A DNA stretch of 62,554 bases, the filler included, from Basidiobolus ranarum (taxonomy: Eukaryota): NCBI GenBank assembly GCA_040143965.1. It is 34 parts of 34 records of this genome, joined end to end, with 100 filler letters (N's around TTAATTAATTAA, not from the genome) between each part and the next. Parts side by side here need not be neighbours in the genome. Positions count along the whole stretch, not along the records: positions 44,281 to 46,019 come from JASJQH010011312.1; 33 more parts are not named here. One strand, written 5' to 3'. Every line of letters starts with the position of its first letter. Position 1 is the stretch's first letter. Under the pieces are notes generated by a model. It made no database searches and had not been told where the DNA came from. It was given only the letters and a program-made list of their open reading frames with translations. The position numbers were made by a program, and so were the translations under genes. This document shows positions 545 to 48,409 of this stretch, piece by piece.

Positions 545-1739
545 ATGAAATTTAGCACCCACAACCACTATGCTAGTACTTTAACCTCAGCGATGGCCTA
601 CTATCAATCCCTTTCTTCCGTTACTACTGGTTGGAGGCCCGTTAGTATGCCTCCATCTGGTTCCAAATTCCCAGTTCACATTGCAAAGCGTACTGTTCCT
701 GGGAAAACAACCGAGGTAGTTCGAGGAACAGCTCTTATTAAAGGAAAGGAGTTCGCTTTGGATGATTGGAAGGCTGTGTTGGAATGTACAGGTGCTCGTA
801 AGATATGTACGTATCAATTTTTCAAGGGAAATTACAATAGAAATATCTGAACTTAGCGAAATTCCTCATAGGGGATAAATTTGTTGAAAGTTCTTCCATG
901 CTTGAAACTTTAAATCCAAATACTCGAATCACTAGGACGATATTAAAGACTGGTTGGCCTAAAAGGTAAAGTTTTCCATTCCTCTCCCTAATGAAAATTA
1001 ACCTTTCACTCATTATGTATTCAATTTTTTTTATCGTTATAGTCAGCGAGATTTGGTCGTAATTGAAAACACAATGATAGAAGATGATAAGGTGCTCTTT
1101 ATTGCCACATCAATCCCATCCACATCTAACGACCCGGTCTTCTTACGAAAAGCACCGAATTACATACGAGCTAATTTGGATTTAATGGCCATTTGTATTG
1201 AAACAGTCACCAAATCTCCAGCTGACAATGGCTCTCTCTCCGAGCTTGGAATGGTTATCCATAAAGCCCTACAGGTGACCGTCTACTATCAAGTGGACTT
1301 GAAAGGCTGGAAATCATCATCCTCAGTGGCACTTCAATCACCGCTATGTATTAATGAGATCTATTCATATCTAAATGATTTTGGAGTACCGCCGCATGTA
1401 TTCAGATATGGCAAATGGATTCAAGTGAACCAGAACGATTACCACCATGAAGATCGTTTGTTTGAATTGAGTTACTCAGTGGTTGAAATCGACGATATCG
1501 ATGCTTCCAATTTTGGTAGTAAAGGAAGTTCCAGTGGTTCGGAGTTGGATTTAGATGATATCATTGAGATTAGTATAGATGGAGAAAGATGGTGCTCGGG
1601 AAATGTTCAGGCTCATATCTCTGTAAATGGGAAGGAGGATCCTCAGTTCGTACAAGATTGTGTAGAGTGCTTTAAGCATCCAGGGATTATGATGGGAAGT
1701 TTAGTGATGATCGGTTTTCCATCAGCGGACCAAAGCTAA
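545..1739 (+). CDS. START/SRPBCC lipid-binding domain protein; exons about 545-806, 872-965, 1043-1739
   Basis: Introns GTACGT..CATAG (807-871) and GTAAAG..TATAG (966-1042) join three segments in frame. The product reads VLECTGARKIWDKFVESS...KTGWPKSQRDLVV...YIRANL...VTVYYQVDLKGW, which fits START motifs (R..WD, WP..RD.V, QVDLKGW). The 3' end is uncertain because the stop is 12 bp from the contig end. Confidence 0.75.
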
Positions 1740-9249: not shown

Positions 9250-9390
9250 TAATATATTCTACACATTAGTTTGTTGACATCTTGACAAAACTATAAATGT
9301 CAACTTTCTACTCAATAAATCAATAAGTGAAAACCACCAATTCCTCTAATTCTCCAAACCTCTTCCAACAGGCTCCCAAATACTTTAACA
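9250..9390 (+). mobile_element. LTR end, copia family A, inserted in a copia RT
   Basis: Reverse complement of the family A LTR, ending TTTAACA at 9390. Confidence 0.85.
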
Positions 9391-10996
9391 ATCTTGAATT
9401 GGACTGATAGATCTCTTTTGGTGTTCCTGATAGCCTTATCATTATTGATAGCTATAATCAGATCATCTACATATAAGGCAAGTAACACCTTACTGTCCTT
9501 ATCTATCTTACAGTAGATTCCACAATCCACCATACTCTTTTGGAAGTCAGGTGTTTCCAAGTATGTTACTATCTTAGTGTACCAGGCCCTGGGTGATTGT
9601 TTAAGTCCATAAAGTGATTTTTGAAGTTTACACATGTCCTCACAGTGCTTAGGATCCACAAAACCATCTGGTTGATCCATGAATATATCCTCTTCCAAGT
9701 CCCCATTCAAAAAAGCCGTTTTAACATCCTTTTGATGGATTTTCAAGCTGTGTTTGGCTGCTACTGCTAGTACAATTCTGATGGAATTAAACTTTACTAC
9801 AGGAGCAAATGTTTGACTGTAGTCCACTCCTTCCATTTGAGAGTATCCATTAGCCACAAGTCTGGCATTATATCTTTCTACAGATCCATCAACTTGCTAT
9901 TTAACCTTAAACACCCATTTGCATCCAATTGATTTTTGGCCATCAGGTAACTTAACAAAAGTCCAAGTTTGATTATCTATGAGTGACTGATACTCCTCAG
10001 CCATTGCAGCACTCCAAAACTTTGTGTTGGGACTCTCTATAGCCTCCTATAATGATTTGGGTTCATCAGAAAAGGCTAAATTAGCACTAGGCTCCATTTG
10101 GCTAGTGTGAGAGTAGTAATCAGGTGGAGATCTGATCTGATGGGATCTCCTAAGATGGAAAGTTGGCACTGCAACTTCTGGTACCAACTTAGGCAGTGAA
10201 ACCACCTCAGCTTGGTTGAGGAGACTGCGGTGAGGAATTTTCAATATTTTTCTCACTGATTAGGATCTGTTGAGAGAAAGAAGAATTTACATCAATTTTT
10301 GGTTGTTTTCTTGATCCTGGATTGTTTTGATTGAAAATTTTTCTTCTTCAGCAAATTCCATGTCCCTTGACTTGATTAGCCTCTTATTTTCAGTGTCATA
10401 TAGTCTGTACCCTTTTGTTCCATCACAATATCCCAAAAAAAGACATTTCTGGCTTTTTTGGTCTAATTTTGATCTCTTCTGGTCTGGAATCATTGCATAT
10501 GTGATACTTCCAAAAACTCTGAGATTAGCCACATCAGGTTTACTTCCAAACCAAGCTTGATAAGGTGTCATAGCTAATAAAGACATATAAGGACATATAT
10601 TCCTAATATATACTGCAGTTGCAAGCAATTCAGCCCAGAACTGTTTGGTACATCTTGATCATGAAGCATTGATCTTGCCTTTTCCATTATTAATCTGTTT
10701 CCAGATTCTGCTACTCCATTCTGCTGTGGGGAATATGGTACTGTAGTCTGCTGCTTTATCCCATGTGTTGAGCAGAAGTTAGAGAAGAGTTTTGTGGTAT
10801 ATTCCCCTCCATCATCAGTACGGATTATCTTAATCTTTTGACCTGTTTCAGTCTCCACCATTGCCCAGAATTTCTTGAAGGTATCAAAGGTTTCATCCTT
10901 ACTGGCCAGAAAGTACACCCAAGTATACTTTGTCTTATCATCAATAAAGGTCATAAACTACCTTTTTCTGCCTAAGGATTTTGTCTTCATTGGGCC
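9391..10996 (-). mobile_element. Ty1/copia pol remnant: integrase then RT
   Basis: Integrase IRTDDGGEY and YSPQQNGVAE; SH3-like CLFLGYC; RT DVKTAFLNG, LYGLKQSPRAW and LYVDDL. Integrase before RT is the copia order. Confidence 0.97.
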
Positions 10997-14790: not shown

Positions 14791-16537
14791 TTGGGCTGAA
14801 TCTGTCTCCACTGCAGTCTATATCAAAAACAGATGCCCAACAAGATTGCTACAAAATTCTACTCCATTTGAAGCCCTATATGGATCAAAACCAAGTGTGG
14901 ATCATCTCAGGATCTTTGGTTGCACAGCATATTGCCTAATTCCAGCTCAAAAATGCTCAAAATTGGAACCCAAAAGCAGAAAATGCATATTTCTTGGTTA
15001 CTGTGATGGATCCAAGGCCTACAGACTGTTTGATACCAAAAATCAGAAGTTAATTAAGTGCAGAGATGTGATTTTTGATGAAAAAGCAAATTTTTCACCT
15101 CAAATCACAGTTCTTGATCCAGAAAACACAATCAGCACTATCAAGGAAGTGTCTGATGGAACTCCAGCTGTATCTGAGCCCCACTCAGCCCAAACTCCAG
15201 TCCCAATAACATCAGAGGATGATTTAGGCCCTAGAAGATCATCCAGAAGGAGGAATAAGCCAGGAAACTGTTGAAATCTATCCAATAATGATTTATATGC
15301 GTATGCAGCATTCTGTGATGAGCTCCAGACTCTAGATCAAGCTCTGGGGTGTCCAGTATCCAAATTATGTGAAAAAGCAATGTTAGATGAGTTTTCTTCA
15401 CTTCAGGACAGCACAACATTAGTTTTAGGTCCTCTTCCATCAGGGAGAGTGCCAAGAGGCTGCAAATGGGGCTACAGAGTCAAAAACCCAACTGATGGTG
15501 CCATAGAAAGGTACAAAGCAAGATTAGGCACAAAAGGCTACTCCCAGATGCCAGGAGCTGATTTTAAACAAGCCTTTGCTCCAGTAGCTAGGTTTAGCTC
15601 CATTGGATCAATCCTTGCACTCTCCGCTGTCTGTAACCCTCATTTACATCAAATGGATGTAAAATTAGCCTTTCTGAATGGAAATCTCAAAGAAGAGATC
15701 TATATGGAGCAACTAGATGGATTTGTTGGTTGAAAACATTCTGATATTGTCTGTATGCTGGAAGAATTGCTATGTGGACTCAGGCAAACACCCAGGGCAT
15801 GGTACAACAAGATAGATACCTATTTGCAACTACCAGAATTCTGAAAATGAATAGCAGATCACAGTATCTACATCAAAATAACCGGAAATTGGATCCATAT
15901 CTTGGCACTGTATATGGATGACTTAATCATAGTCACAAATGATTGAAGAGCACTAAATCAAACAAAAAGCAGCTTATCAAACCAATTTCAGATGACCAAT
16001 ATTGGAGAATCAAGTTATTTTCTTGGAATCCAAATCAAGAGAGATAAACCCAATCAGAAAATCATGCTGAATCAGTCTAGATACATCCTAGATATCCTAC
16101 AATGCCTCAACATGGAGAATAGCAAGCCTGTATCAACACCAATGGATTCCAATGTTCAGTTATTCAAAATTTCATCTGATTTGGCCCAAAAAGACTGAAA
16201 TTAAAGCCAGGGGCTCCCTTATCAATCCAAGGTGGCAAGTTTAATGTATGCAATGGTTGGAAAACATCCAGATATTGCTGTGGAAGTGGGAACTGTCAGC
16301 CAATATCCCAAAATCCAGGATCTGCACACAAAAATGCAGTAAAACAATTATTCAGATTTTGGAGAGGAACCGTAGATCAAGTACTGGAATATTCTGCCAC
16401 TCCTGATGCATGAATTTTTGAAGGCTACAGTGATGCAGACTGGGGAAGAAACCTTGATGATAGATGATCACCAACTGGATACTCTTTTCTCTAAGATAAT
16501 GAAGCCATAACTTGGAATAGTAAGAAGCAACTAACCA
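14791..16537 (+). mobile_element. Ty1/copia pol remnant (integrase end, RT, RNase H start)
   Basis: LRIFGC, CIFLGYC, YKARL, HQMDVKLAFLNG, YFLGIQI and GYSDADW, with many stops. Confidence 0.97.
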
Positions 16538-20329: not shown

Positions 20330-21540
20330 TCTAACCCCATTATGTCAAGATCCTCCAACATGGTAGCAGCAAGTGAACAAGAGTCTTCTTCCCAAAAGGA
20401 GATTACTAATTTTCCAACATTCAATGGGGAAGATTTCCATGAATGGAAATTCAAGATGCAACTTGTGCTCAAAGGGAAACATATCTGGGAAGTAGTTAAA
20501 CCAGATGAAGAAGAAGAAACATCTCAAGAAGAAATTATAGATTCAGATACTGAAACAAAGAAGCCAACACATAAAGAAGCCAGGGCAGCCTATGTCAAGA
20601 AGAATTTAAAAGGAAAGACAAAGGTCAGCTTGTAGATGAAACAAAAACTGCACAAGCATCTTATTCTCAAAATAGCCAACCAGAATGGAGCACTGTGAAA
20701 TGTTACAAATGTGGAATATTAGGACATATAGCTTGTTACTGCAGATCCAAGAAGAAATGGGTATCAAAGAAAAAGGAAGCATATAACATCACTAAAAGAG
20801 CAAATAAACACTAGGTACTTTTGGCAACCTCTAAATCTGGAAACAACTCTGCTGATGTATGGATTCTAGATTCTGGTGCAAGTGATCATATGTGTCACAA
20901 TAGAGACAGAATTCATGGCTATAAGGAAATAGAACCTCTGGACATCATGGTAGCTAGAAGAAACAAACTGGTTGCGTATGGAATGGGAAAGGTCACACTT
21001 GACTTACAAATAAGTAAAACCCAAAGTGTAACAGTAACCTTGGAAGATGTCTTATATATTCCATCATTTGTAACAAATCTGTTTTCAATTGGAGCAATTG
21101 AAAAGAAACATTATGATGTTGAACTCAGCCAAGGAAAAGCAACCATATACAAATCACAGGACTTGATAGTAGCAACTGGAACCAGAAGTGGAAATCTATA
21201 TCACCTGGATATTGCACTGATAATGGAGACTGTTTCTAACTTTGCAACAATTACTTCTGAAAACTTCATGACTTGGCATCAGTGCTTGGGTCATTGAAGC
21301 TATAATAGAGTGAAACTATTATATAAAAGTAGCCTATGTACTGGACTGGATCTTTAGGCCTCAGAATTTACTAAATGTGAAAGCAGTATTCAAGGGAAAT
21401 CACCAGAAAACCATTTCCAAAAGAAGGAGCTAGCAAAGCCAAAGATTTATTGGATCTTATTAATACAGACATATGTGACCCAATGCAAACTCTGTCACCA
21501 AGTAAGTGATGATATTTACTCATCTTAATTGATGATAAAT
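20330..21540 (+). mobile_element. Copia family D: LTR end, PBS TGGTAGCAG (20361), gag, protease and integrase start
   Basis: FNGEDFHEWKFKMQLVL (gag), CYKCGILGHIACYC zinc knuckle, WILDSGASDHM protease, WHQCLGH. Other family D LTR pieces lie at 19520-19780, 31394-31590, 55106-55212 and 57149-57382. Confidence 0.95.
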
Positions 21541-22174: not shown

Positions 22175-23919
22175 TAATGCTTCATCATTACTTGAGTTAG
22201 TTGTGGCAGGTTAATGCCTTCCAAAGTGGATAGTTGATCACTAGGCTGCTCATCAATTGAGTCCTCTGTTCTTGCTGGTTTTTTTCCTTTCCTGCCAGCA
22301 GGCTTTGGCTTCAAAGCCAATTTTGACTTGGATTTTGAACACGTTTTCAATGGTATTGAAATTTTCAGATGGTAAACTTGGTGTAATGAAATTGCTTAGA
22401 TACAGCTTATGATAAACCAAAATTGCCATTCATTACCGCATATATCTTGTAAATCCTCTGATAACTCATCTGTGGCACCATCTCAAAATCAGCTGATGAT
22501 ATTGATGGGCTATACCCAAAATAACACCCTTAGGTAGGACATATTCTTTTTTCTACAATATCCTTCTCATGCCGCCACAAAAATGTTTCAAGAAGCCCTG
22601 CTATTTTTGTCACAGATTCTTGTTCTACAAAAGCCGGAGGCTTCATAGAAAAAATAATCACAAGCACAGTCACTGTACAAAGCCACCAGCTGCACAAAAC
22701 CTTGTGTATAACAACAGTAATAAGTGCACTAAATTGACTTCAGTTTTGCCTCTTTAGTCCACTGACTGTAGTTTACCTCAAAGTTTTGGTAACACTGCAA
22801 AAAGTCAAGATACCGTGGAGTTACCACAGTTATATGATCAGAATGATATTGGTAAAAATTCAACTTTGGTCCAACCAGTAAGTCCAGACAACTTTAAAGA
22901 CTTGCTGCAAGATGTTGACCTTGGTTATTCCAGTACTGATGGTGGTATATCAGAAGTTGAAGAAGAAGACAACAGTTCTGTTATAGACTCTTTGATATTG
23001 GCAACATTAGTGCACTAATAACACTTACAGTAAAGGTAGCAGCTTTGATTATTGGGGAGTTGAGAGTTCAATTCTATCTTAGCAACCAGGTGTTTATTGG
23101 TTTTCTTACACTTTTACCACAGTTGATTGGCAACTGTTACTTGCTACAGACCTGGTACAAGTGGAAAACACTTGTCATCATATGACTTTTAATACTTCAG
23201 TAATTAAACTGCTTTCATGTCCAAATGGTTATTTGGCTTTCACCAGTTATCTGAAAAACCCAAAGTCATGTACTGTTCGCACACAATTGGCAATCACTGA
23301 ATCAGGTACTTATTGTTCATATTTGGCTTACATACCATTGATTCCCCATCTTAAAGTTTTGATGAAATCATCCAAATATAGGTCATTGATCCAATACCAA
23401 AGTACTCACCATAAAGCTGATGGTATTGCCAATATACTTGATGGATATCACTACCAGAATCTGAAAAGTTAAGGTTTCTTTGAGAACACATATGATCATG
23501 CATTTGCATTGGCTCTGGCTGGTTTCTCACCAAACAAATATACCGTTGGAAAGGCTTGCTGGCCAATAATTTTAATTGACTTAAATCTTCCTCCTTCTGA
23601 ATGGTATAAGAGTCATAATATTTTGATACTTTCCATCATATCTGGACCTAAATCACCAATGCTTATAGATAGCTTCTTGGAGCCTTTGATTGCGAAATTT
23701 GAACGGTTATCTAATGGGGTTCAGATGAGTGAGTATTTTATTACAGCTAATATCATTGTATGTATTGGTGACACTCCTGCCATCAGTAAGCTTGGAGGCT
23801 TTTGCAGGCACTATGCACTATCTTGCTGTAGATTTTGTCAAATCAATGGAGTTTACTCTAACAGGCATACACATTACTACTATCCAAATACAACTCTAAA
23901 CTTCATGATTTTACTGTCA
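22175..23919 (+). mobile_element. CACTA/CMC central region: transposase 5' half (ATG 22569, +) and divergent second ORF (22350 and leftwards, -)
   Basis: MPPQKCFKKPCYFCH leads on to YIPLIP, CWPIIL, IGDTPA and CCRFC. The minus ORF KPKPAGRKGKKPARTE is homologous to 34062+. Confidence 0.85.
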
Positions 23920-24344: not shown

Positions 24345-25763
24345 TCAATAATATCTTAATAATTCACATTGTGCTTTAGCTAGGTTTGTTTTAGATGTCG
24401 GCAATCATATCTTCAGTAGGGAATAGACAAGCTCAATTATATCATTCTCTATTGCTTCTCCAACAAAATGGTGCCTAATATATATATGTTTTGTTCTAGC
24501 ATGAAATGTAGTGCTTTTAGCTAACAAAGTAGAACTTTGATTATATTCAAATACAGTAATAGCACATTTTTTGCTTGTATACCAAGTCTGTAAATAACTT
24601 CCTTACTCACATAGCTTTTGGTGTAGTAGCAGAGGCAGCCATATACCCTGCCTCTGCATTGGAAAGTGCTATGGTTGGCTGCTTCTTACAATTCCAAGTT
24701 ATGGCTCCATTACCCTAGAGAAAAGTGTACCCGGTTGTTGATCTTCTGTCATCAAGATTTCTTCTCCAGTCTGCATCACTGTAGCCTTCAAAGTTTTGTG
24801 CATTAGGAGTGGCAGAGTATTCCCAAACTAGATCTACAGTTCCTCTCAAATACCTGAATATTTGTTTTACTGCACTTCGGTGCTCAAATCCTGGATTTCT
24901 GAGATAATGACTGACAGTTTCCACCACCACAGCAATGTCTGCACATGTTCTAACCATTGTGTATATTATACTACCCACCTTGCATTGATAAGGGAACTCC
25001 TGGCTTTGATTTGAGTCATTATGGGACAAATTGAATGAAATGTTGATTAATTTCACATTGGGATCCATTGGTGCTGTTACAGGCTTGCTATTCTCCATGC
25101 TGAAGCGTTTTGAGATGTCTAGGATGTATCTAGACTGATGCAGCATGATTTTCTGATTGGGGTTATCTCTCTTGATTTGGATTCCAAGAAAATAACTTAA
25201 TTCACCCATATCGGTAATCTGAAATTGGTTTGATAAGCTGCTTTTTGTCTGTCTAAGAGCTTCTATATCATTTGTGGCCATAATCTAGTCATCCACAAAT
25301 ATTGCCAAGATAAGAATCCTATTTCCAGTTGTTTGAAGTAAATACTGTGATCTGCTGTGTATTTTTGGAATTCAAGTGATTCCAAATAGGTATCTATCTT
25401 GTTGAACCATGCCCTGGGTGCCTGCTTAAGTCTGTATAGTGATTTTTGTAGTTTACAGACCACATCAGGACATTTTAGGTCAACAAATCAATCTAGTAGC
25501 TCCATATAGAACTCTTCTTCCAGATTTCCATTCAGAGAGGCTGTTTTTACATCCATTTGATGTAGATCAAAGTTATGGACACCTGACAATGCCAGCATTG
25601 ATCTAATGGAGCTAAACTTAGCTACTGGAGCAAAAGTTTCCTTAAAATCAACTCCTGGAGTCTGGGATTAGCCTTTTGCAACTAATCTTGCTTTGTACCT
25701 TTCTATGGTCCCATCAGCTTGGTTCTTGACTTTGTAACCCACTAGCAATCTATTGGGTTTCTT
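24345..25763 (-). mobile_element. Ty1/copia RT and RNase H remnant
   Basis: LKQAPRAWF, YFLGIQI, GYSDADW..DDRRSTTGY and EDMIAD motifs. Confidence 0.95.
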
Positions 25764-35077: not shown

Positions 35078-36757
35078 TTAGGCAATTTTTGATCATTTTG
35101 CTCAAATAATCAAATCCAATATGACCAAATCTCTTATGCCACAATTGAATAGTTTCTTGATTGGAATAACTTATATTTACACATAAACCTCTTGGATTAT
35201 ATGTAAGTTTGTATAAGTTCTGATCCTTTTCTCCCAAAGCTGAATAACTCCCATTTTGATCAGTGATGGTGCATCCTGACTTGCCAAAATTGAATTTTAG
35301 CCCTTCTGAGGTGGCCTTGCATACAGATATTAAATTCTTGGCAATATCTGGAACATGTAGTACATTCTTAAAAGTATATACTTTCTCTTCAGAAGCTCCA
35401 GTTAAATTGACTTGAATTGTTCCCATTCCAATAGCATCCAAAGTGCCATCATCTCCCATGAAAACCTTTCTAATTGGAATTTCTTCATAATCCCCAAGCC
35501 AATGTTTATCATTTGTCAAAGGTTGGGAAGCTCCAGAAGCAATATACCTTGTCTGGGAATCCTTGTTGGTAGTTGTAAATAGAGCAGATATGAACAAGTG
35601 ATCTTCTGTTGTAACCACATTTCCAGATTCAGTATGTTTTTCCTCATTTGCATTTCTTTTAAAGCAATCTGGGCATAAATGCCCAGTTCTTTTACAGTAT
35701 CACAGAAGGGGGTACTCCTCTTCTTAAAGTACTTTTGCCCTTTATAGGAAGGCTTCCCATCACCTGTTACATCATTTTCTTCATCCTTTTGGTAGGATCC
35801 TGATTTGTGTAAACTTTCATCCAGAAGTCTGCCAAATACATAATTTAAGGTCAAATTTTCAGTTCTTGATTCTAGAGCCATTTCTAGGCTCTGAAACTTG
35901 TATGGCAGGCTATTCAGGACTGTGACTATGATATCCTGATCAGTAGTAGGTACTCCAATGCATTCTATTTCATCCACTAAAATAGTGACTCTATTAATTC
36001 ATGATCAAATATCTTCTCCTGGCTTCATATTGAGGTTAAAGATTTGTCTTCTGAAAAACATCTTGTTGGCAGCAAAACCTGTTTGGTAGGTGTCTTCTAA
36101 GGCTTTTCCATACCTTCTTAGCAGTTTTAGCTCTTGAACATTGAATTTGCAATTTGTCTTTAGCATTAAGACAAATTGTGTTAAAGGCACTTTGTTCTTT
36201 TTTAACCTGGAGTCAAACTTTGGTTTCAAATAGTTTTGCATTGCTTTCTTCTCCTGCAACAGTGTCCCAAAGTCCTTTTTCTTGCAACAGCATTTTCATT
36301 TTAATTTTCCAAACTTGGTAATTGGTTTCATCCAATTTTTCAGAATAGGGAAAAGTTCCATAGATTTGAGAAGTAGACATTACAGAGAGTGCATGCTTGG
36401 GGCTCATAACCTGTTAAATTATTTGGGAGCCTGTTGGATGGGGATTCAATTATTTGGAGGTATTGGTAGTTTTCACCTACTGATTTATAGAGTAGAAAGT
36501 TGACATTTATAGTTTTGTCAAGATGTAAACAAACTAACATGTAGAAAGTGTTAAGGAAGGTCCCAGGAACATGGGTGCAAAGTTTGGGGCTTCTAGCACC
36601 TGTTTGAAAAATCTTTATTTCTGAGAACTTTCAAGTTGTAAAATATCCAAAGTAAGTTCCAATTGAGAATAATGGATAATACCTTGGTGAATTATACAAT
36701 AACTAAGTACTAAGTTATATATAACTATATAGGTGTTTAAGCAATGCTAATTTCTAT
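35078..36757 (-). mobile_element. Copia family A: 5' LTR (36412-36757), PBS GGTTATGAGCCC (36400-36411), gag, protease, GAG-pre-integrase
   Basis: KLDETNYQVWKIKM, LNSLP, YIASGASQ, NVLHVPDIAKNLISV and LWHKRFGHIG. Confidence 0.96.
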
Positions 36758-38759: not shown

Positions 38760-39532
38760 TACTGAATTCTTCACACCATTACAAAGATCAGCAACTCTAG
38801 AGTCAGATATACTGGCAAAAAAGCTTATCTTCACCATGGAACTGGGTACACCAGTTGGAACAGTGCTAAATTTGGAAGTTTATCCAACACCTGGCTTCTT
38901 TCAACAAGCCCAAGCTCCAGCAAATAAAACTCAAGGCTCTCCAACTTCAACTGGTACTTTTCAAAGTGTTGAAGTTAACCTTCAAGTTCAAGGCAAGCAA
39001 AAAGCCACACAAACACTGCAAAGCACCCTCAGTAGGGTCATACTACAAGGATATACAAAAATAGTCAAAGTGCTTGAGGAGTATTACCAAAAGTATGAAG
39101 GGAAAAATGCAGTGCAAGTATGCAGAAAGTGGCTTCAGAAGAAGAACATTCAACTTGACATTGAGTCTGGTTTGGGCCGTGCAGATATCTGGGAAGAACA
39201 TAATCCAGAGTGGCACAATATTGCAGGGTATCTGCCAGATAGCTGGAAGAATGTTAGGGATTTTGAAGGTGACAAATCAGCATTCAAGTGGTAATTGTGT
39301 AAAATTTGAGTTATGTTTTTCACACATGTCTTGATCCATAGTTCTCTGAGATTGTAGCCAATTATGTGCAACTATTTTGCAAGATCTTGAAATTTCACTC
39401 CTGAAACTGAAAAAGTTGATTGAAATCAAATCTAACTTGACATTTTTTTGACAGTAAGTAAATGGTCAATCTCGAATGGATTAAAATTGTGAAGATTTTT
39501 CTACAATAACAATCCTCAGATTTTTGTTAGGG
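38760..39532 (+). mobile_element. CACTA second-ORF C-terminus running into the left terminus (...TGTTAGGG)
   Basis: ORF 38836-39294 is homologous to 46120-46480, 5270-5452 and 61760-62002, and ends at the TIR. Confidence 0.8.
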
Positions 39533-40208
39533 AGCCGTAATGTGTATGCCAGATAGAGTAGACCCTGTTGGTTTAACAAAATCTACAGCAAGATGGTGCA
39601 TTGAGCCTGCAAAAACCTTCAAGTTTACTGATGGCAGGAGTGTCACCTATACATACAATGATAGGAGCTTTAATTAAATATTCATCCATATGAACCCCAT
39701 TAGATAACAGTTCAAATTCCACAATGAAAGGCTTCAAGAGGCTATCTATAAGCAATGGTAATTTAGGTCCAGATATGATGGATAGTATCACAATACTGTG
39801 ACTCTTGTACCATTCAGAAGGAGGAAGATTTAATTTGATTAAAATTATTGGCCAGCCAGCCTTAGCAACAGTTTATTTGTTTAGTAAGAAACCATCCAGA
39901 GCCAATGCAAATGCATGATCATATGTGTTCCCAAAGAAACCTTGACTTTTCAAATTCTGTAGCAACATTCATCAAGTAAATTGGTAATACCATCCGCTTC
40001 ATAGTGGGTGCTTAGGTATTGGATCAATGATCTATATTTGTGTGATTGCATCAAAACTTAAAGAAGGGGAATCAATGGTATGTAAGCCAAAAATGAATGA
40101 GATTTGTCTGATACAGTGATTGCCAATTGTGTGCAAACAGTACATGCCTCCAGGTTTTTAGTTCACCAGTGAAAGCCAAACAACCATTTGGACATGAAGG
40201 TTGTTTAA
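39533..40208 (-). mobile_element. CACTA/CMC transposase fragment
   Basis: IGDTPAISKL, CCRFC and CPNGCLAF motifs. Confidence 0.88.
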
Positions 40209-44180: not shown

Positions 44181-45693
44181 NNNNNNNNNNNNNNNNNNNN
44201 NNNNNNNNNNNNNNNNNNNNNNNNTTAATTAATTAANNNNNNNNNNNNNNNNNNNNNNNNNNNNNNNNNNNNNNNNNNNNTACTGGCAGTGGTGTATCCT
44301 TCCTCTGGCATCAATAGAGTCATTGTTAAATAAAAAAGAAATTCAGAGTAGACGAACTATCTGCTGTGCAGATGTTCAAATTTCACAAATAGAAAAGACA
44401 AGCAATAAATTAAGAGCTATTTAAAAACATCTTCATCGAATCAAGTCCAATTTAACTTCTTACAGTGTTGTAGGATATTCTCCTTGATATTGGCCTACTT
44501 TTTCATTATTGATATATACATGTAAAAGCGAAAATGCAGTATATTGGAAGAAAGCAAGCCCGATTTCTTGAATCCTTATTGAGATTCATTAAATTTGTGA
44601 TCAGATCTAGCCGGATTGATCGCTAATCGCATTTATGGAGGCAGTCCAATACGGCTATTTCTATATTCAGTCACAACTGTACAAATCAAGTAAATTTTAT
44701 ATACAACGTAAAATGGCCCAAGATAATGGAACAAAGGTCTGTGATTTGCATTGGCCAGCCTGCATACCAATTCCCTCATTTAACATTACTAACTTTTAGT
44801 TCATTAACAAGTAAATTTGGATCCATTAAGAGTTCCTTATTTATTTAATTCGAATCACATTTTTTGGTACAATCTGGACAGGTGGATCGGGACCTAAACG
44901 TGTATAGCCTAAATGAACTCATTAGCACCACACAGTGTGTGTATCCGAGTAGGATTTTGCAGAATCACTATGAGGTTACAACTTCCAGATTATCGAAGCG
45001 GACTGATACAACTGGCACTCATAACAAGTTTGTCTACAATATTTTATCTTCGTCTTGTTCCCGCATTGTTTCCAAGATCGTACCTATCCGCACACTGAGT
45101 AGTGGAGTGGTTATTGAATGTGGTCCAATATTGAACATTTATGACGAGCACTCGCAAGCTCATGATGTGTTTTATTGAAATAGGCTATAAAGCAATATCC
45201 ACTAGTTCTATCATCCCTGTATAACGAATAAATATTAGCCCAAGTGTGTATGCCAGCAACGTAATTTCTAAGAGTAAGTTAGAATTCGTACCATTTCTTT
45301 CAACATCGATAGTAACGCTACTATTTTGTCAATTAATAATATACTTTAAATTTATTGGACTAATCGGTTCACAGTTAACATAATTAGTTTACATATGTTC
45401 ACAATCTATACCTCCACTAATAGCCTCTCAAGCCATATCGGATTGAATCTTGATTCGCTAAAGTACTTGTCAATAAATGGAACGTAGAGTATTCGTAACC
45501 ATAGAATTATATCATGGATCTCGAAGTCAGTGCATCTTTCAATATGGAAAAAGGTGGATTGGGATCTGGGAGTCACGTTGACAGATTTTCACCATACGTG
45601 GAGAGTGGAGGTAAAAATATATAAAGCGGCGGTGGATGCTCAGTTATAGATCAGTACTGAATTACTATTAGAAACATACTACTAAACATCAAA

Positions 45694-46019
45694 ATGGTCA
45701 ATCTTACATCTGCTTTATCCTGCGTGTTCCTCGCAGCTGCCACTTTCATAGCCTCTTCCGTTGAGGCCTTACCAACTCACAATATAGTCGCCGCTCCTAG
45801 TTCCTCAAACCAAACTGAGATAGCTAGCACATCCAGTAAACTCGCTAATATCAGCGTGCTGGCCTATTGCTCTCGCAGCTTCCGCTTCAACAATGGCCAA
45901 TGTACCGACTGGGCTGATGCCCGCTACTATGAACTCACTTGCCAACATACGGAGTGGTGGGGTGATGCTCGCACCTGGCCCAACAGTGCCCGCAATGTCA
46001 ACGGATGGGTTGTCTCTAG
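45694..46019 (+). CDS. Secreted CHAP-domain (Cys/His amidohydrolase) protein, 3' truncated
   Basis: Signal peptide ending VEA|LP, a Ser/Thr linker, then GQCTDWADARY...WWGDARTW...GWVVS, the CHAP GQCT / WG[ND]A..W pattern. TATATAAA at ~45619. The catalytic His would lie beyond the contig end. Confidence 0.85.
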
Positions 46020-46119
46020 NNNNNNNNNNNNNNNNNNNNNNNNNNNNNNNNNNNNNNNNNNNNTTAATTAATTAANNNNNNNNNNNNNNNNNNNNNNNNN
46101 NNNNNNNNNNNNNNNNNNN

Positions 46120-46761
46120 CAAAGCACCCTCAGTAGTATCACACTACAAGGATGTACAAAAATAGTCAAAGTGTTTGAGGAGTATTTTCAAAAGTATGAA
46201 GGGAGAAATGCAGTGCAAGTATGCAGAAAGTGGCTTCAGAAGAAGAACATTCAACTTGACATTCAGTCTGTTGTTGACCATGCAGATATCTGGGAAAAAC
46301 TTAATACAGAGTGGCACAATATCACAGGGTATCTGTGAGATATCTGGAAGAATGTTGATTCAGCAACGTAAATACAATGGTGCACTTTGATGGAGATATT
46401 GACACAAACTTGTGTTGGGTATGAGCTAAACCTTGGGTCTGAGGAACTCTATAAAAATATTCAGGAGAATATATCAAAAAGACTAGGGATTTCAAAGGTG
46501 ACAAATTAGTGTTCAAGTGGTAATTGTGTAAAATTTGAGTGATGTTTTTTGCACATGTGTTGATCCATAGTTCTCAGAGATTTTAGCCAATCATTTGCAA
46601 CTATTTTGCAAGATCTTGAAATTTCACTCCTGAAACTGAAAAAGTTGATGAAAATCAAATCTAACTTGACAATTTTATGACAGTAAGTAAACAATCAATC
46701 CTAAATGGATTAAAAATGTGATGGTTTTCCTACAACAACAATCCTCAAATTTCTGTTAGGG
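46120..46761 (+). mobile_element. CACTA second-ORF C-terminus plus left terminus
   Basis: Homologous to 39020-39532 and ends TTTCTGTTAGGG. Confidence 0.82.
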
Positions 46762-48409
46762 ATCAAATGTATAACCCAGACATTTGTATGTTTTTATGCA
46801 ATCATTTGTCTCTCACTCACATATTATCCTGATCTTCAATTGAGCCCAGTGGCTCCTGCATTATGAAACACCAGTAGTTTTGGCACACCAGTGACAAATG
46901 ACAGCACTGGATGATGGATCAAGCTGCAGTAAAAGAGTAATGATCAGGATTGCTTGATTCATCATTTTTTGATCAGCAAATTATTCATTCAATCATATGA
47001 GCTTCTAGTTGGGTGACAATGTGAATGGATTGAGCCATATTGAGCCAATACAGCTCCATAAGCTTTTTCTTGATGGACATTTTTCATTTAATTGTAGTGC
47101 AATTGCTTGCATTGATTGGTTATGATTGATTTTTTTGATACATGATGATTTCATGCTGGAGTTGTTATAGGGTGTGAGCAGTAACCATAACTGCAATATC
47201 CTAAGGGTTTTGTGAGGTGTCCAAAGAGTGCAATATTCATAGTTGAATAGCTCTGGGATATACTGTAATTTGGGTCTGTCTCTTGCCTCTTGAATCTTTG
47301 TGAAAGGGAACCAAGCCTCTAGAAATGTCTAAAGATTGATAAACTACAATATAATGTCCAGCTTTCTGTTGAATAATATGCTTGCTCTTGACAAAAGAAT
47401 TACTGGCTTCAATGTCCTTTGAGAATGATCAGATAAAAAGGGTATAGCCAATCAAAAACAGCTTTAAACTCAGCTTGCAGGGTCTTGATCAAGGAAGTAC
47501 TAGTAGTGATTAATGCAAGGATATGAAAAGTGTGTTGCCTATGCAGGCAAAGCTAGGTAAAAATATAGAAAACATCAGGAATATAACATCTACTTGTCAG
47601 TACTTGCTCTGACCCAGTCAAGTCCTTTCTAGTCATCCAGTAGCCTGTAACTATCTCTGGTAGTCTCTCTTGAGCTTCCTCTTTAAAGGTCTTCTAAGCA
47701 GTGATGAAAATAGGGGGTGATCACAAGTAGTATATATAGGCCAAAAACCAGGATTATTTTTATTGAAAAGGTATGGCTCCTATTTATACTTTTCTGAAGA
47801 TAGAAATGGTTACTGATGAGAGGTTCTGGAAAGTTCCAGAGAAATCTATTGGTGGTGANNNNNNNNNNNNNNNNNNNNNNNNNNNNNNNNNNNNNNNNNN
47901 NNTTAATTAATTAANNNNNNNNNNNNNNNNNNNNNNNNNNNNNNNNNNNNNNNNNNNNGTATGACGTGAGTGTAAATCCATAATGATCACCGTAATACTT
48001 TGTTATTTCAGTGATGGTACCATTAACGCAATCAGGATCTAAGCACTTGTGCTCCAATTTTCCAAACCCTGATAAAAAATCACTAACAGGAAGACCTTCT
48101 GCACTCAACATTTCTACCGCAAGATTCATCGCTTTACTAACGACATTTTTACCCCAAGATCCATCGATTTATACTATCATACAATTACGGTGAAAGCAAG
48201 GTACTCTTAATTCTCCATGTTTTATGAAAATGCTGGGAAAGTTATCGAAGGTTGCATAGTTGATGGTGTCTGATTATTTTCATGGTTGAATTTTATCCTC
48301 TCATATTCTATATTTCGATGTGGATACTTTCGTGGGTAGAACACATGGCTTAGGTTACCCTGTTAAGTCAATAATTGCAACAGTTACAAATTACCGTTGA
48401 AAGGATGAA

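Follow-up and report, generated by a model that had tools for sequence, protein, structure and literature searches.

Bacterial wall hydrolases that have been transferred to eukaryotes are known in kind. Trichomonas vaginalis has nine laterally acquired genes for NlpC/P60 peptidoglycan hydrolases, with antibacterial activity established by experiment according to the text of PMC10461829. In Saprolegnia parasitica, secreted CHAP proteins encoded by seven genes were judged to be bacterial acquisitions that expanded by duplication, as stated in the text of PMC3681718. Basidiobolus is already known for heavy uptake of bacterial genes, and discussion so far has centred on secondary-metabolite genes. 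Tabima et al. 2020 counted 806 HGT candidates in B. meristosporus CBS 931.73, or 5% of its genes; most lack introns and resemble fungal genes in composition, and the emphasis was on secondary-metabolite genes and gut-associated donor phyla (PMC7466969). The main text of that article mentions no CHAP, peptidoglycan, Chloroflexi or Ktedonobacter, and its supplementary tables S4 and S5 may list the family described here. Neither CHAP nor peptidoglycan hydrolases are mentioned for Basidiobolus in the text searched of PMC7466969, PMC11291939, PMC8778642 and a 2025 Basidiobolus preprint with 19 new genomes; the matches to 'chap' in PMC8778642 are 'chaperone' words.

The window, the whole stretch of 62,554 nucleotides from B. 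ranarum analysed here, consists of 34 unlinked segments of 1735-1751 bp each, separated by artificial joiners, and many transposon pieces are found across it. The ORF at 1002-1739, on a separate contig of the window, has a B. meristosporus START-domain protein as its sole match (78% identity). The contig at 44281-46019 is part of a fragmented Basidiobolus-type assembly, and no matches to it were found in the rest of the window.

The ORF on this contig probably represents a nuclear Basidiobolus gene for a small secreted CHAP (peptidase C51, papain-like Cys-His-Asn) peptidoglycan hydrolase that came from a single old bacterium-to-fungus transfer and was then expanded. It opens with the ATG at 45694 in the + strand frame MVNLTS...GQCTDWADARYYELTCQHTEWWGDARTWPNSARNVNGWVVS and runs for 108 codons, through 46017, to end without a stop where the contig is cut at 46019. 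Its match to P0003, a 179-aa Basidiobolus CHAP protein and the best full-length relative, is not due to chance, since it has E = 2.8e-46 with 73% identity over 100% of the query. The 108 codons are colinear with P0003, with no gap (79/108 identical, 91/108 positives), and the ORF makes up the 5' 60% of a Basidiobolus gene. The earlier note had called the gene intronless, which holds for these codons and is shown for these only. The start context, ATCAAAATGG, is graded good, and the TATA box that had been proposed is likewise present as a sequence match (Table 1).

The signal peptide and the S/T linker with NQT and NIS sequons, also proposed earlier, are supported, the former as a eukaryotic-style leader by hydropathy and the -3/-1 rule and the latter as a glycosylatable stretch. 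The hydrophobic core covers residues 7-20 (Kyte-Doolittle up to 2.5), V23-E-A25/L26 is compatible with the -3/-1 rule, and MVxL...EALP is conserved among the closest paralogues. An N-terminal hydrophobic leader is seen in 19 of the 24 family rows and in none of the other five; these calls were made by hydropathy and the -3/-1 rule. A third sequon, NLT at residue 3, lies within the hydrophobic N-terminus. The linker is probably disordered, with a pLDDT of 50-66 over this region in the P0003 model.

Table 1. Features of the contig that carries the CHAP gene, in coordinates of the window
Feature	Position	Strand	Remarks
Contig with the CHAP gene, 1739 bp	44281..46019		Only real linkage unit around the finding; GC 0.385
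Tail of a second, upstream CHAP copy: last 11 codons (TGSGVSFLWHQ) and TAG	44282..44317	+	tblastn match of P0003
Spacer between the two CHAP copies, 1376 bp, AT-rich	44318..45693		Includes what lies 3' of the upstream copy, and the downstream copy's promoter region
TATA-like element TATATAAA	45618..45625	+	76 nt upstream of the ATG; sequence match only
Predicted signal peptide, residues 1-25	45694..45768	+	Cleavage predicted after VEA (hydropathy, -3/-1 residues)
S/T-rich linker, residues 26-61	45769..45876	+	Sequons NQT (39) and NIS (52); subclade-specific Cys59
N-terminal part of the CHAP domain, residues 62-108 and 2 bases	45877..46019	+	Cut by the contig end; the boundary is the analysts' placement
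Artificial joiner between contigs, not biology	46020..46119		N44-TTAATTAATTAA-N44; an unrelated contig comes after

The window contains 47 residues of the CHAP domain; Pfam matches fragment residues 65-106, and BLASTP aligns residues 63-108 to protein P0002. With Pfam CHAP (PF05257) the fragment reaches 16.6 bits over profile positions 6-40 of 81 (E = 0.012), short of the gathering cut-off of 26 because half of the domain is missing, and with NCBIfam it gives a sub-threshold match only (E = 0.073). All seven full-length relatives tested pass the Pfam cut-off (50.5-58.7 bits), and Pfam finds CHAP alone in full-length relatives, with no SH3b or LysM wall-binding module. Among solved structures, the CHAP domains 2k3a and 5t1q are matched by the family profile with E near 2e-11, and the database auto-label of family proteins is 'Peptidase C51 domain-containing protein'. 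P0003, on which the fold was judged rather than on the fragment, is predicted to adopt the papain-like alpha+beta CHAP fold. Its AlphaFold model has a pLDDT mostly above 90 across the CHAP domain, the aligned Cys70 heads helix 70-82, and the top Foldseek matches are all CHAP domains, from staphylococcal amidases and phage lysins (5t1q, 9eum, 9euf, 2k3a and 4olk; probability 1.00). The CHAP identity first read from the fragment is thus upheld through its full-length relatives and this model fold. The catalytic Cys70 lies in NNGQCTDWA (codon TGT, 45901-45903) and is invariant in one alignment with relatives. Counted over the Basidiobolus rows, the catalytic residues are present in 21/23 (Cys70), 21/22 (His131, in GHVA) and 19/20 (Asn148).

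The CHAP fold is also known in glutathionylspermidine and trypanothione amidases, which rank further down among the Foldseek matches (3a2z, E = 9e-3; 2vob, E = 0.11). A protein of bacterial origin that is secreted but has a substrate other than living bacterial walls, acting in muropeptide scavenging for nutrition, in trimming the fungus's own surface proteins or glycopeptides, or as an amidase of a small thiol-amide compound in the manner of the glutathionylspermidine amidase CHAP domain, would also agree with the lack of a cell-wall-binding module. The window subclade has gained Cys59, Cys83 and Cys126, which are absent in all 126 Ktedonobacteria-type rows and could accompany a changed active-site environment. 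Such a substrate is nonetheless unlikely, since peptidoglycan amidases and endopeptidases give the best matches in both sequence and fold, and a secreted enzyme is more in keeping with an extracellular polymer than with a cytosolic thiol conjugate. CHAP is also combined with lytic transglycosylase (SLT) domains in the nearest bacterial relatives (SLT+CHAP+TM), as in wall-cutting proteins. The preferred reading is a peptidoglycan hydrolase.

At least 23 database proteins make up the family; they come from B. meristosporus and B. ranarum and are the only close relatives. The family is one clade within the CHAPs of Ktedonobacteria (Chloroflexota). In the near-length search eight of nine candidates were Basidiobolus CHAP proteins, as was the single match of the longer-length search. 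The earlier note had proposed a horizontally acquired bacterial enzyme; the bacterial origin stands, but the gene is not private to this genome and is one member of a genus-wide family. At the contig start, 44282-44314 is 10/11 identical to the P0003 C-terminus (residues 169-179; E = 0.01-0.04 within the window). The contig start therefore carries the end of another CHAP copy on the same strand, which indicates that the CHAP genes are arranged in tandem. Family members in B. ranarum also have consecutive locus tags: a 19-kb contig carries 005993, 005994 and 005995, and another, of 3.3 kb, carries 016307 and 016308. A weak, stop-interrupted tblastn match at 45174-45260 (14/30 identical, E = 0.39) was treated as chance.

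Catalytic residues are missing from some paralogues, so not every copy is an enzyme: Cys is replaced by Phe in P0060 and P0173, and His by Tyr in P0019. With at least three such database paralogues, five without a leader, and an assembly that ends inside the gene in a window full of transposon pieces, the copy studied here might be a dead fragment, a paralogue truncated or in decay within repeat-rich DNA. The C-terminal CHAP half was not found on the other 33 contigs when five family proteins were searched against the window by tblastn. It is, however, quite unlikely that the copy is dead, since 108/108 codons stay open and follow P0003 colinearly, differing by conservative changes, and the fragment retains the catalytic Cys and each of the 26 family-invariant positions that it covers. 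The TATA-like element and the good start context are in place, and assemblers break contigs at near-identical tandem copies. The preferred reading remains a gene of the expanded family, and this copy is not called intact, since the assembly stops at codon 108.

Bacterial contamination of the fungal assembly, with the ORF as an ordinary bacterial autolysin gene, is very improbable. CHAP is overwhelmingly a bacterial and phage domain, and the three Protein Atlas clusters listed for P0003 are all 100% bacterial (generic CHAP, scores below 0.9). The contig is short and unlinked, and the ORF, at a GC of 0.519, lies in the range of Ktedonobacteria homologues (0.507-0.597, 12 loci). However, the closest whole-length proteins, leader and linker included, are from Basidiobolus, with the B. 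meristosporus relatives on contigs of 84-177 kb, while bacterial relatives match the CHAP domain only, at 61% identity or less, and have a different architecture. The gene is also flanked by 1.4 kb of DNA unlike the dense coding of bacteria: spacer 44318-45693 has a GC of 0.351 vs 0.519 in the ORF, no ORF above 61 aa and no Rfam family. The TATA-like element upstream of the gene and the START-domain ORF elsewhere in the window are further signs of fungal residence. Since the 1.7-kb contig is linked to nothing, nuclear linkage of this copy rests on the relatives in other assemblies.

The origin of the family was traced with an exhaustive profile search of 1.84 billion representatives, which gave 1529 proteins at E <= 1e-3. 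The 28 distinct representatives looked up are 13 from Basidiobolus, three from Ktedonobacteria and 12 without an organism name, and the best-scoring 12 of those looked up (P0011-P0022) are all Basidiobolus. All 13 named eukaryotes among the 28 belong to this genus, with no broad fungal clade and no oomycete among these top representatives; the count leaves out representatives P0080-P0159 and 1379 further matches. A first scan of prokaryote genomes with narrow patterns from the fungal alignment alone gave 47 pattern matches and no relative. A second scan used a mixed alignment on 185,579 prokaryote species genomes, and among the 77 loci it gave, the best 70 all belong to Chloroflexota, with 57 titled as Ktedonobacteria-class and 13 as Chloroflexia or Chloroflexota only. 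Identity to P0003 runs from 61% down to 39% in the Chloroflexota loci, and Bifidobacterium comes next at 38-44%. Ktedonobacteria are soil bacteria, and their CHAPs carry GQCTYWA[ND]xRYHxLTG, in agreement with the earlier remark that the W-A-D-x-R-Y-x-x-L segment recalls soil-bacterial CHAPs. Within Ktedonobacteria the subfamily occurs in five families or more, and genomes carry several paralogues each.

In a 59-row tree the 17 Basidiobolus rows form one clade (100/99), recovered in 200/200 bootstrap trees, which is nested in a 96/86 clade with five named Ktedonobacteria. The closest non-fungal rows, P0033 and P0046, come from assemblies without an organism name. Holding the 38 bacterial rows together was rejected by the AU test (p = 0.022), with the group chosen after the first tree had been seen. 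The trees rest on 115 columns, and many inner forks are unresolved. The bacterial origin suggested earlier is thus borne out by a fungal clade nested among Ktedonobacteria CHAPs, and no outcome that the earlier note named as refuting occurred: the family has the GHVA His, the flanking DNA is not dense bacterial coding sequence, and the eukaryotes named are of one genus. A reverse transfer, with Ktedonobacteria as recipients of a fungal gene, or descent from an ancient eukaryotic gene that all other lineages lost, is hardly credible: the unrooted tree alone gives no direction and the Bifidobacterium root was placed by choice, but the subfamily is widespread and multicopy in Ktedonobacteria, its peptidoglycan substrate is bacterial, one eukaryote genus alone has it among the representatives looked up, and the fungal clade arises within bacterial diversity on one long stem (0.43-0.48).

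Under the preferred reading, a single ancient transfer would have brought the gene from a Ktedonobacteria-like soil bacterium, or its mobile element, into an ancestor of Basidiobolus, with tandem duplication afterwards. The mature enzyme would be secreted and possibly glycosylated, and may cleave peptide or amide bonds of bacterial peptidoglycan with Cys70 as the nucleophile and the His and Asn coming from the C-terminal half that is missing here. Basidiobolus is found among bacteria, in amphibian and reptile guts and dung. Antibacterial activity of the Basidiobolus CHAP proteins is inferred, and the hydrolase may help the fungus to kill bacteria, to compete with them or to digest them in dung, gut and soil.

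A more specific proposal is possible but tentative. The donor may have been a filamentous soil Ktedonobacterium, or its phage or conjugative element, and not a gut bacterium. One module would then have been given a signal peptide and a glycosylated linker, with new cysteines in one subclade, to become a tandem arsenal of at least 20 secreted bacteriolytic enzymes that shape the bacteria of herptile gut and dung. A Ktedonobacterium or its mobile element is named as donor in this proposal because of the SLT+CHAP+TM and CHAP+TM make-up of the nearest bacterial relatives. The phage or conjugative vehicle stays a guess, since PHROGs returned a single weak family, its function unknown, for the nearest bacterial relatives and no match for P0003, and Pfam gave no match on the neighbours of the L061 gene. 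The Ktedonobacteria donor signal suggests that some foreign genes were acquired in a soil or dung phase and not in the gut. If the preferred reading is true, secreted peptidoglycan hydrolases would be a second, enzymatic route by which Basidiobolus acts on bacteria, and the family would be a source of small, single-domain, eukaryote-adapted lysins.

Compared with solved enzymes, the Basidiobolus family shares its fold with the staphylococcal CHAPs 2k3a and 5t1q, LysK CHAPk (4csh), LysGH15 (4olk) and the phage phi812 hub (9eum), with the catalytic Cys and His at equivalent places. The relationship is distant, with 26-29% identity for the best five Foldseek entries, and the third catalytic position is Asn in the Basidiobolus family but Glu in 2k3a. 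The Basidiobolus CHAPs have no SH3b or amidase partner domain, and bond specificity is not transferable to them from the staphylococcal CHAPs.

The Ktedonobacteria CHAPs, such as WP_112429574.1 of Thermogemmatispora tikiterensis and GER87773.1 of Dictyobacter vulcani, belong to the same CHAP subfamily, with up to 61% identity over P0003 residues 64-178. Both groups have the motifs GQCT.WA..RY..LTG, PSIIV.QPG.QG and GHVAVVE.IN.DGSVYTSN.N and the C-terminal PG.GVSF.W. The Ktedonobacteria proteins either have 290-360 aa, in which the domain is preceded by a long N-terminal region with an internal hydrophobic anchor, or are SLT+CHAP+TM proteins. Among 30 bacterial representatives, 25 place a hydrophobic, membrane-anchor-like segment internally, ahead of a C-terminal CHAP, and the remaining five have CHAP and then a C-terminal hydrophobic segment. 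The bacterial N-terminal region and membrane anchor are absent in the fungal proteins (170-320 aa), most of which instead have a hydrophobic leader and a short S/T/N-rich linker, and the window subclade adds its three cysteines.

The Trichomonas vaginalis NlpC/P60 proteins are similar in that a papain-like bacterial wall hydrolase was duplicated into a small family in a microbe that lives among bacteria. They differ in belonging to family C40, with Cys-His-His, Gram-positive donors and a parabasalid recipient, and in having activity against bacteria established by experiment (PMC10461829). In Saprolegnia parasitica, the other CHAP case, the recipient is an oomycete and the text consulted names no donor (PMC3681718). 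The principle of antibacterial gene transfer into eukaryotes is unchanged by the Basidiobolus case, and the family matches the description given of the HGT candidates in B. meristosporus (PMC7466969).

The ORF carries part of a CHAP domain and lies at the end of one of the 34 contigs of 1735-1751 bp each that make up the 62,554-base window, length-sorted and joined by an artificial N44-TTAATTAATTAA-N44 spacer. The window contigs are unlinked, so any "neighbourhood" across a joiner is without meaning. The features listed for this ORF in the earlier note were accurate, but the ORF is incomplete, ending at the contig edge, and "intronless" holds for 108 codons only. Residues 7-20 form a hydrophobic core in the hydropathy profile, followed by V-E-A|L-P, and by hydropathy and the -3/-1 rule the N-terminus fits a cleavable signal peptide. 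An S/T-rich stretch of 36 residues, with NQT and NIS inside, lies between this leader and the CHAP part, which reads FRFNNGQCTDWADARYYELTCQHTEWWGDARTWPNSARNVNGWVVS, and TATATAAA is found 76 nt upstream of the start. The ORF has a GC content of 0.519; the mean for fungal genes of B. meristosporus CBS 931.73 is given as 0.4865 (PMC7466969). The upstream spacer (1376 bp) has a GC content of 0.351, with a largest ORF of at most 61 aa, and an arrangement with such a GC-poor, ORF-poor spacer beside the ORF is eukaryotic in character rather than bacterial.

Features of the window, by position along the whole stretch
Feature	Position	Strand	Description
Contig bearing the CHAP ORF	44281-46019		25th piece, 1739 bp, GC 0.385; sole linkage unit
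CHAP ORF fragment	45694-46017	+	ATG, 108 open codons, then two bases to the contig end
Tail of a second CHAP copy	first 36 bases of contig 44281-46019	+ (same strand)	TGSGVSFLWHQ and stop
Stop-interrupted similarity	45174-45260	+	about 430 bp upstream of the CHAP gene; resembles CHAP residues 119-148
START-like open frame	1002-1739	+	245 codons
Repeated element, first region	46120-46780		contig right after the CHAP contig
Repeated element, second region	38760-39553
Ty1/copia-like long open frame	9312-9896	-	by eye
Ty1/copia-like long open frame	14791-15733	+	by eye
Ty1/copia-like long open frame	20815-21297	+	by eye
Ty1/copia-like long open frame	24715-25284	-	by eye
Ty1/copia-like long open frame	35078-35998	-	by eye
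DNA-transposon fragment	23473-23919	+	Pfam Transposase_21 (tnp2 family), 60.7 bits; DUF1258

The fragment alone scores 16.6 bits on Pfam CHAP (threshold 26 bits, E = 0.012) and covers positions 6-40 of the 81 in the profile, which is what half a domain should give; seven full-length relatives score 50.5-58.7 bits. A near-length protein search returned eight proteins from nine candidates, all from B. meristosporus CBS 931.73 or B. ranarum, and one further B. ranarum protein came from a longer-length search. The best match is P0003, a Basidiobolus protein of 179 aa. It has 73% identity to the full fragment including leader and linker (E = 2.8e-46), and may be an orthologue or co-orthologue of the window gene. 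The family profile matches the solved CHAP domains 2k3a (1.7e-11) and 5t1q (1.9e-11). The AlphaFold model of P0003 has a mean pLDDT of 80.5, and from residue 70 onward most values exceed 90; the catalytic Cys70 is predicted to head helix 70-82, and in Foldseek the model best matches the CHAP domains found in staphylococcal amidases and in phage lysins. The GHVA-type catalytic His asked for in the earlier note is present in the relatives, which in the alignment continue past ...GWVVS as PSIIVIQPGYQGCG..GHVAVVERIN.DGSVYTSNWNY...GVSF.W, while in the window gene its region is beyond the contig end. In the HMMER alignment the Glu of 2k3a, which we take to be a triad position as these are named in other CHAP enzymes, corresponds to Asn148 in the Basidiobolus family, followed by Asn150, so that the family reads Cys-His-Asn. 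The Basidiobolus proteins carry the automatic database label "Peptidase C51 domain-containing protein", and 23 belong to the family, at least 10 from B. meristosporus and at least 13 from B. ranarum; this count is a lower bound, made up of the named representatives, the nine proteins of the length-limited searches and one extra cluster member.

The family genes are arranged in tandem. The peptide at the head of the CHAP contig is identical to the P0003 C-terminus at 10 of 11 residues, and with the CHAP ORF at the other end the contig comprises one copy's tail, a spacer and the next copy's head. Its two ends may belong to separate paralogues, or may reflect one repeat unit that the assembly collapsed. 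B. ranarum family members have consecutive locus tags on one 19-kb contig (005993, 005994, 005995) and on one 3.3-kb contig (016307, 016308); B. meristosporus has two family pairs, each with matching contig size (160,813 and 176,536 bp). Near-identical tandem copies suffice as the reason for the assembly stopping inside the gene. The stop-interrupted similarity within the spacer (14 of 30 residues identical, E = 0.39 within the window) is probably due to chance, though it may be a decayed relic of duplication.

The family is of bacterial ancestry. With the family profile, an exhaustive HMMER search across 1.84 billion cluster representatives yielded 1529 proteins at E <= 1e-3, of which 37 reach E <= 1e-30. 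Among 28 distinct representatives checked for their names, 13 are from Basidiobolus, including the 12 best-scoring of those checked (P0011-P0022), and three from Ktedonobacteria (Thermogemmatispora tikiterensis, Dictyobacter vulcani and a Ktedonobacteraceae MAG); the other 12 are without organism label, four being JGI "surface antigen" entries and eight nameless. Scanning one genome per species for 185,579 prokaryote species with a mixed alignment identified 440 relatives. The first 70 of the best 77 loci are all from Chloroflexota, with 57 titled as Ktedonobacteria-class and 13 just "Chloroflexia" or "Chloroflexota", and range from 61% down to 39% identity to P0003 residues 64-178; after them come one frameshifted "proteobacterium" MAG contig and six Bifidobacterium (38-44%). 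The unusual C-terminal tail PG.GVSF.W is common to Basidiobolus and the bacterial relatives.

In a quick tree of 155 rows and 115 columns, leaving out the frameshifted locus L071 and representatives P0080-P0159, 22 Basidiobolus rows and P0060, also from Basidiobolus, form one clade (SH-aLRT 100) inside Ktedonobacteria-type sequences. A careful tree of 59 rows, hand-picked from the 155, places all 17 Basidiobolus rows in one clade (100/99; 200/200 bootstrap trees). A 96/86 clade holds this clade together with five named Ktedonobacteria and eight other representatives (P0026 is a Ktedonobacteraceae MAG), and itself falls inside a 100/100 clade against Bifidobacterium. A tree in which the 38 bacterial rows are held together as a clade is worse by 9.29 log-likelihood units (AU p = 0.022), the tested group having been chosen after the first tree was seen. 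Since the group was named post hoc and many inner forks are open in the tree, the sequences support, not overwhelmingly, a nesting of the Basidiobolus clade in Ktedonobacteria-type CHAPs.

The architecture differs between the two sides. A long N-terminal region, an internal hydrophobic segment and a C-terminal CHAP are found in 25 of 30 bacterial representatives examined, and the remaining five have a C-terminal anchor; the Basidiobolus proteins have the domain only, behind an N-terminal leader in 19 of 24 rows. Their linker is S/T/N/G-rich and 11-183 residues long by a crude measure, with three rows lacking the Cys motif set to default; read off the alignment, it has at least one N-x-S/T sequon in 8 of 9 rows of the window's subclade. 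This subclade (nine rows, the window included) carries Cys at residues 59, 83 and 126, which are non-Cys in all 126 Ktedonobacteria-type rows (mostly Gly, Gly and Ala) and in other Basidiobolus rows; a natural guess is that they form disulfides, as in a secreted protein. Some paralogues have lost a catalytic residue (P0060 and P0173, Cys to Phe; P0019, His to Tyr); these may be pseudoenzymes or copies in decay, or their gene models may be wrong.

In the tree, P0033 and P0046 lie closest to the fungal clade (92/90); both are proteins of 200 aa with an N-terminal CHAP and a hydrophobic C-terminal tail. The next group out has SLT or SLT_3, CHAP and TM, and includes a gene of a Ktedonobacterales MAG (locus L061, 1623-2702, +) encoding 359 aa with SLT_3, CHAP and a C-terminal TM, the nearest to the fungal clade among named genomes. 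A 390-aa T/G/S-rich ORF (L061 2699-3871, +) overlaps this gene by four bases, and no family match was found for it. Architectures with SLT, CHAP and TM are reminiscent of lysins encoded by phages or conjugative elements. On the neighbours of these relatives neither PHROGs nor Pfam was decisive, and the 4.3 kb of L061 showed no hallmark gene of a phage or mobile element; the ORF pair might belong to a phage or some other mobile element.

Other contigs of the window carry unrelated features. The START-like frame has a single match in a collection of 5.8 billion proteins, a START-domain protein from B. meristosporus (1470 aa, 78% identity); Pfam found nothing on this frame. The CHAP fragment's best match in that species is 73% identical, and the two values together mark the assembly as a Basidiobolus somewhat removed from CBS 931.73. 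The two regions of the repeated element match at 88-91% DNA identity, in stretches of 237 and 299 bp, and the element's open frame reads ...KIVKVFEEYFQKYEGRNAVQVCRKWLQKKNIQLDI... The five long frames resemble, by eye, parts of polyproteins of Ty1/copia-type retrotransposons (gag, integrase, reverse transcriptase).

The bacterial-type CHAP hydrolase with a eukaryotic secretion signal proposed in the earlier note is real, and that reading was essentially right; the present analysis adds the probable donor lineage, Ktedonobacteria, the descent of the family from one origin, its expansion in tandem throughout the genus, and its changed architecture. The enzyme would be secreted and glycosylated, and Cys70, acting with His131 and Asn148 from the half beyond the contig end, would hydrolyse stem-peptide or amide bonds of peptidoglycan, by which bacteria may be killed, outcompeted or digested. 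The enzyme lacks a wall-binding module and its subclade has new cysteines, which would allow for another extracellular substrate.

Bulk bacterial gene transfer has been described in Basidiobolus, with 806 candidates in CBS 931.73 whose median intron number is 0 (PMC7466969). CHAP, peptidoglycan, Chloroflexi and Ktedonobacter go unmentioned in the main text of that paper, and its supplementary tables may list the genes of the CHAP family; the other literature searched held nothing on a CHAP hydrolase family in Basidiobolus. Eukaryotes are already known to have acquired wall hydrolases from bacteria. The Dae genes of ticks and mites are reportedly one such case. In Trichomonas vaginalis, nine NlpC/P60 genes derive from two transfers, with activity demonstrated (PMC10461829), and in Saprolegnia parasitica seven secreted CHAP genes are listed as candidates for horizontal transfer (PMC3681718).
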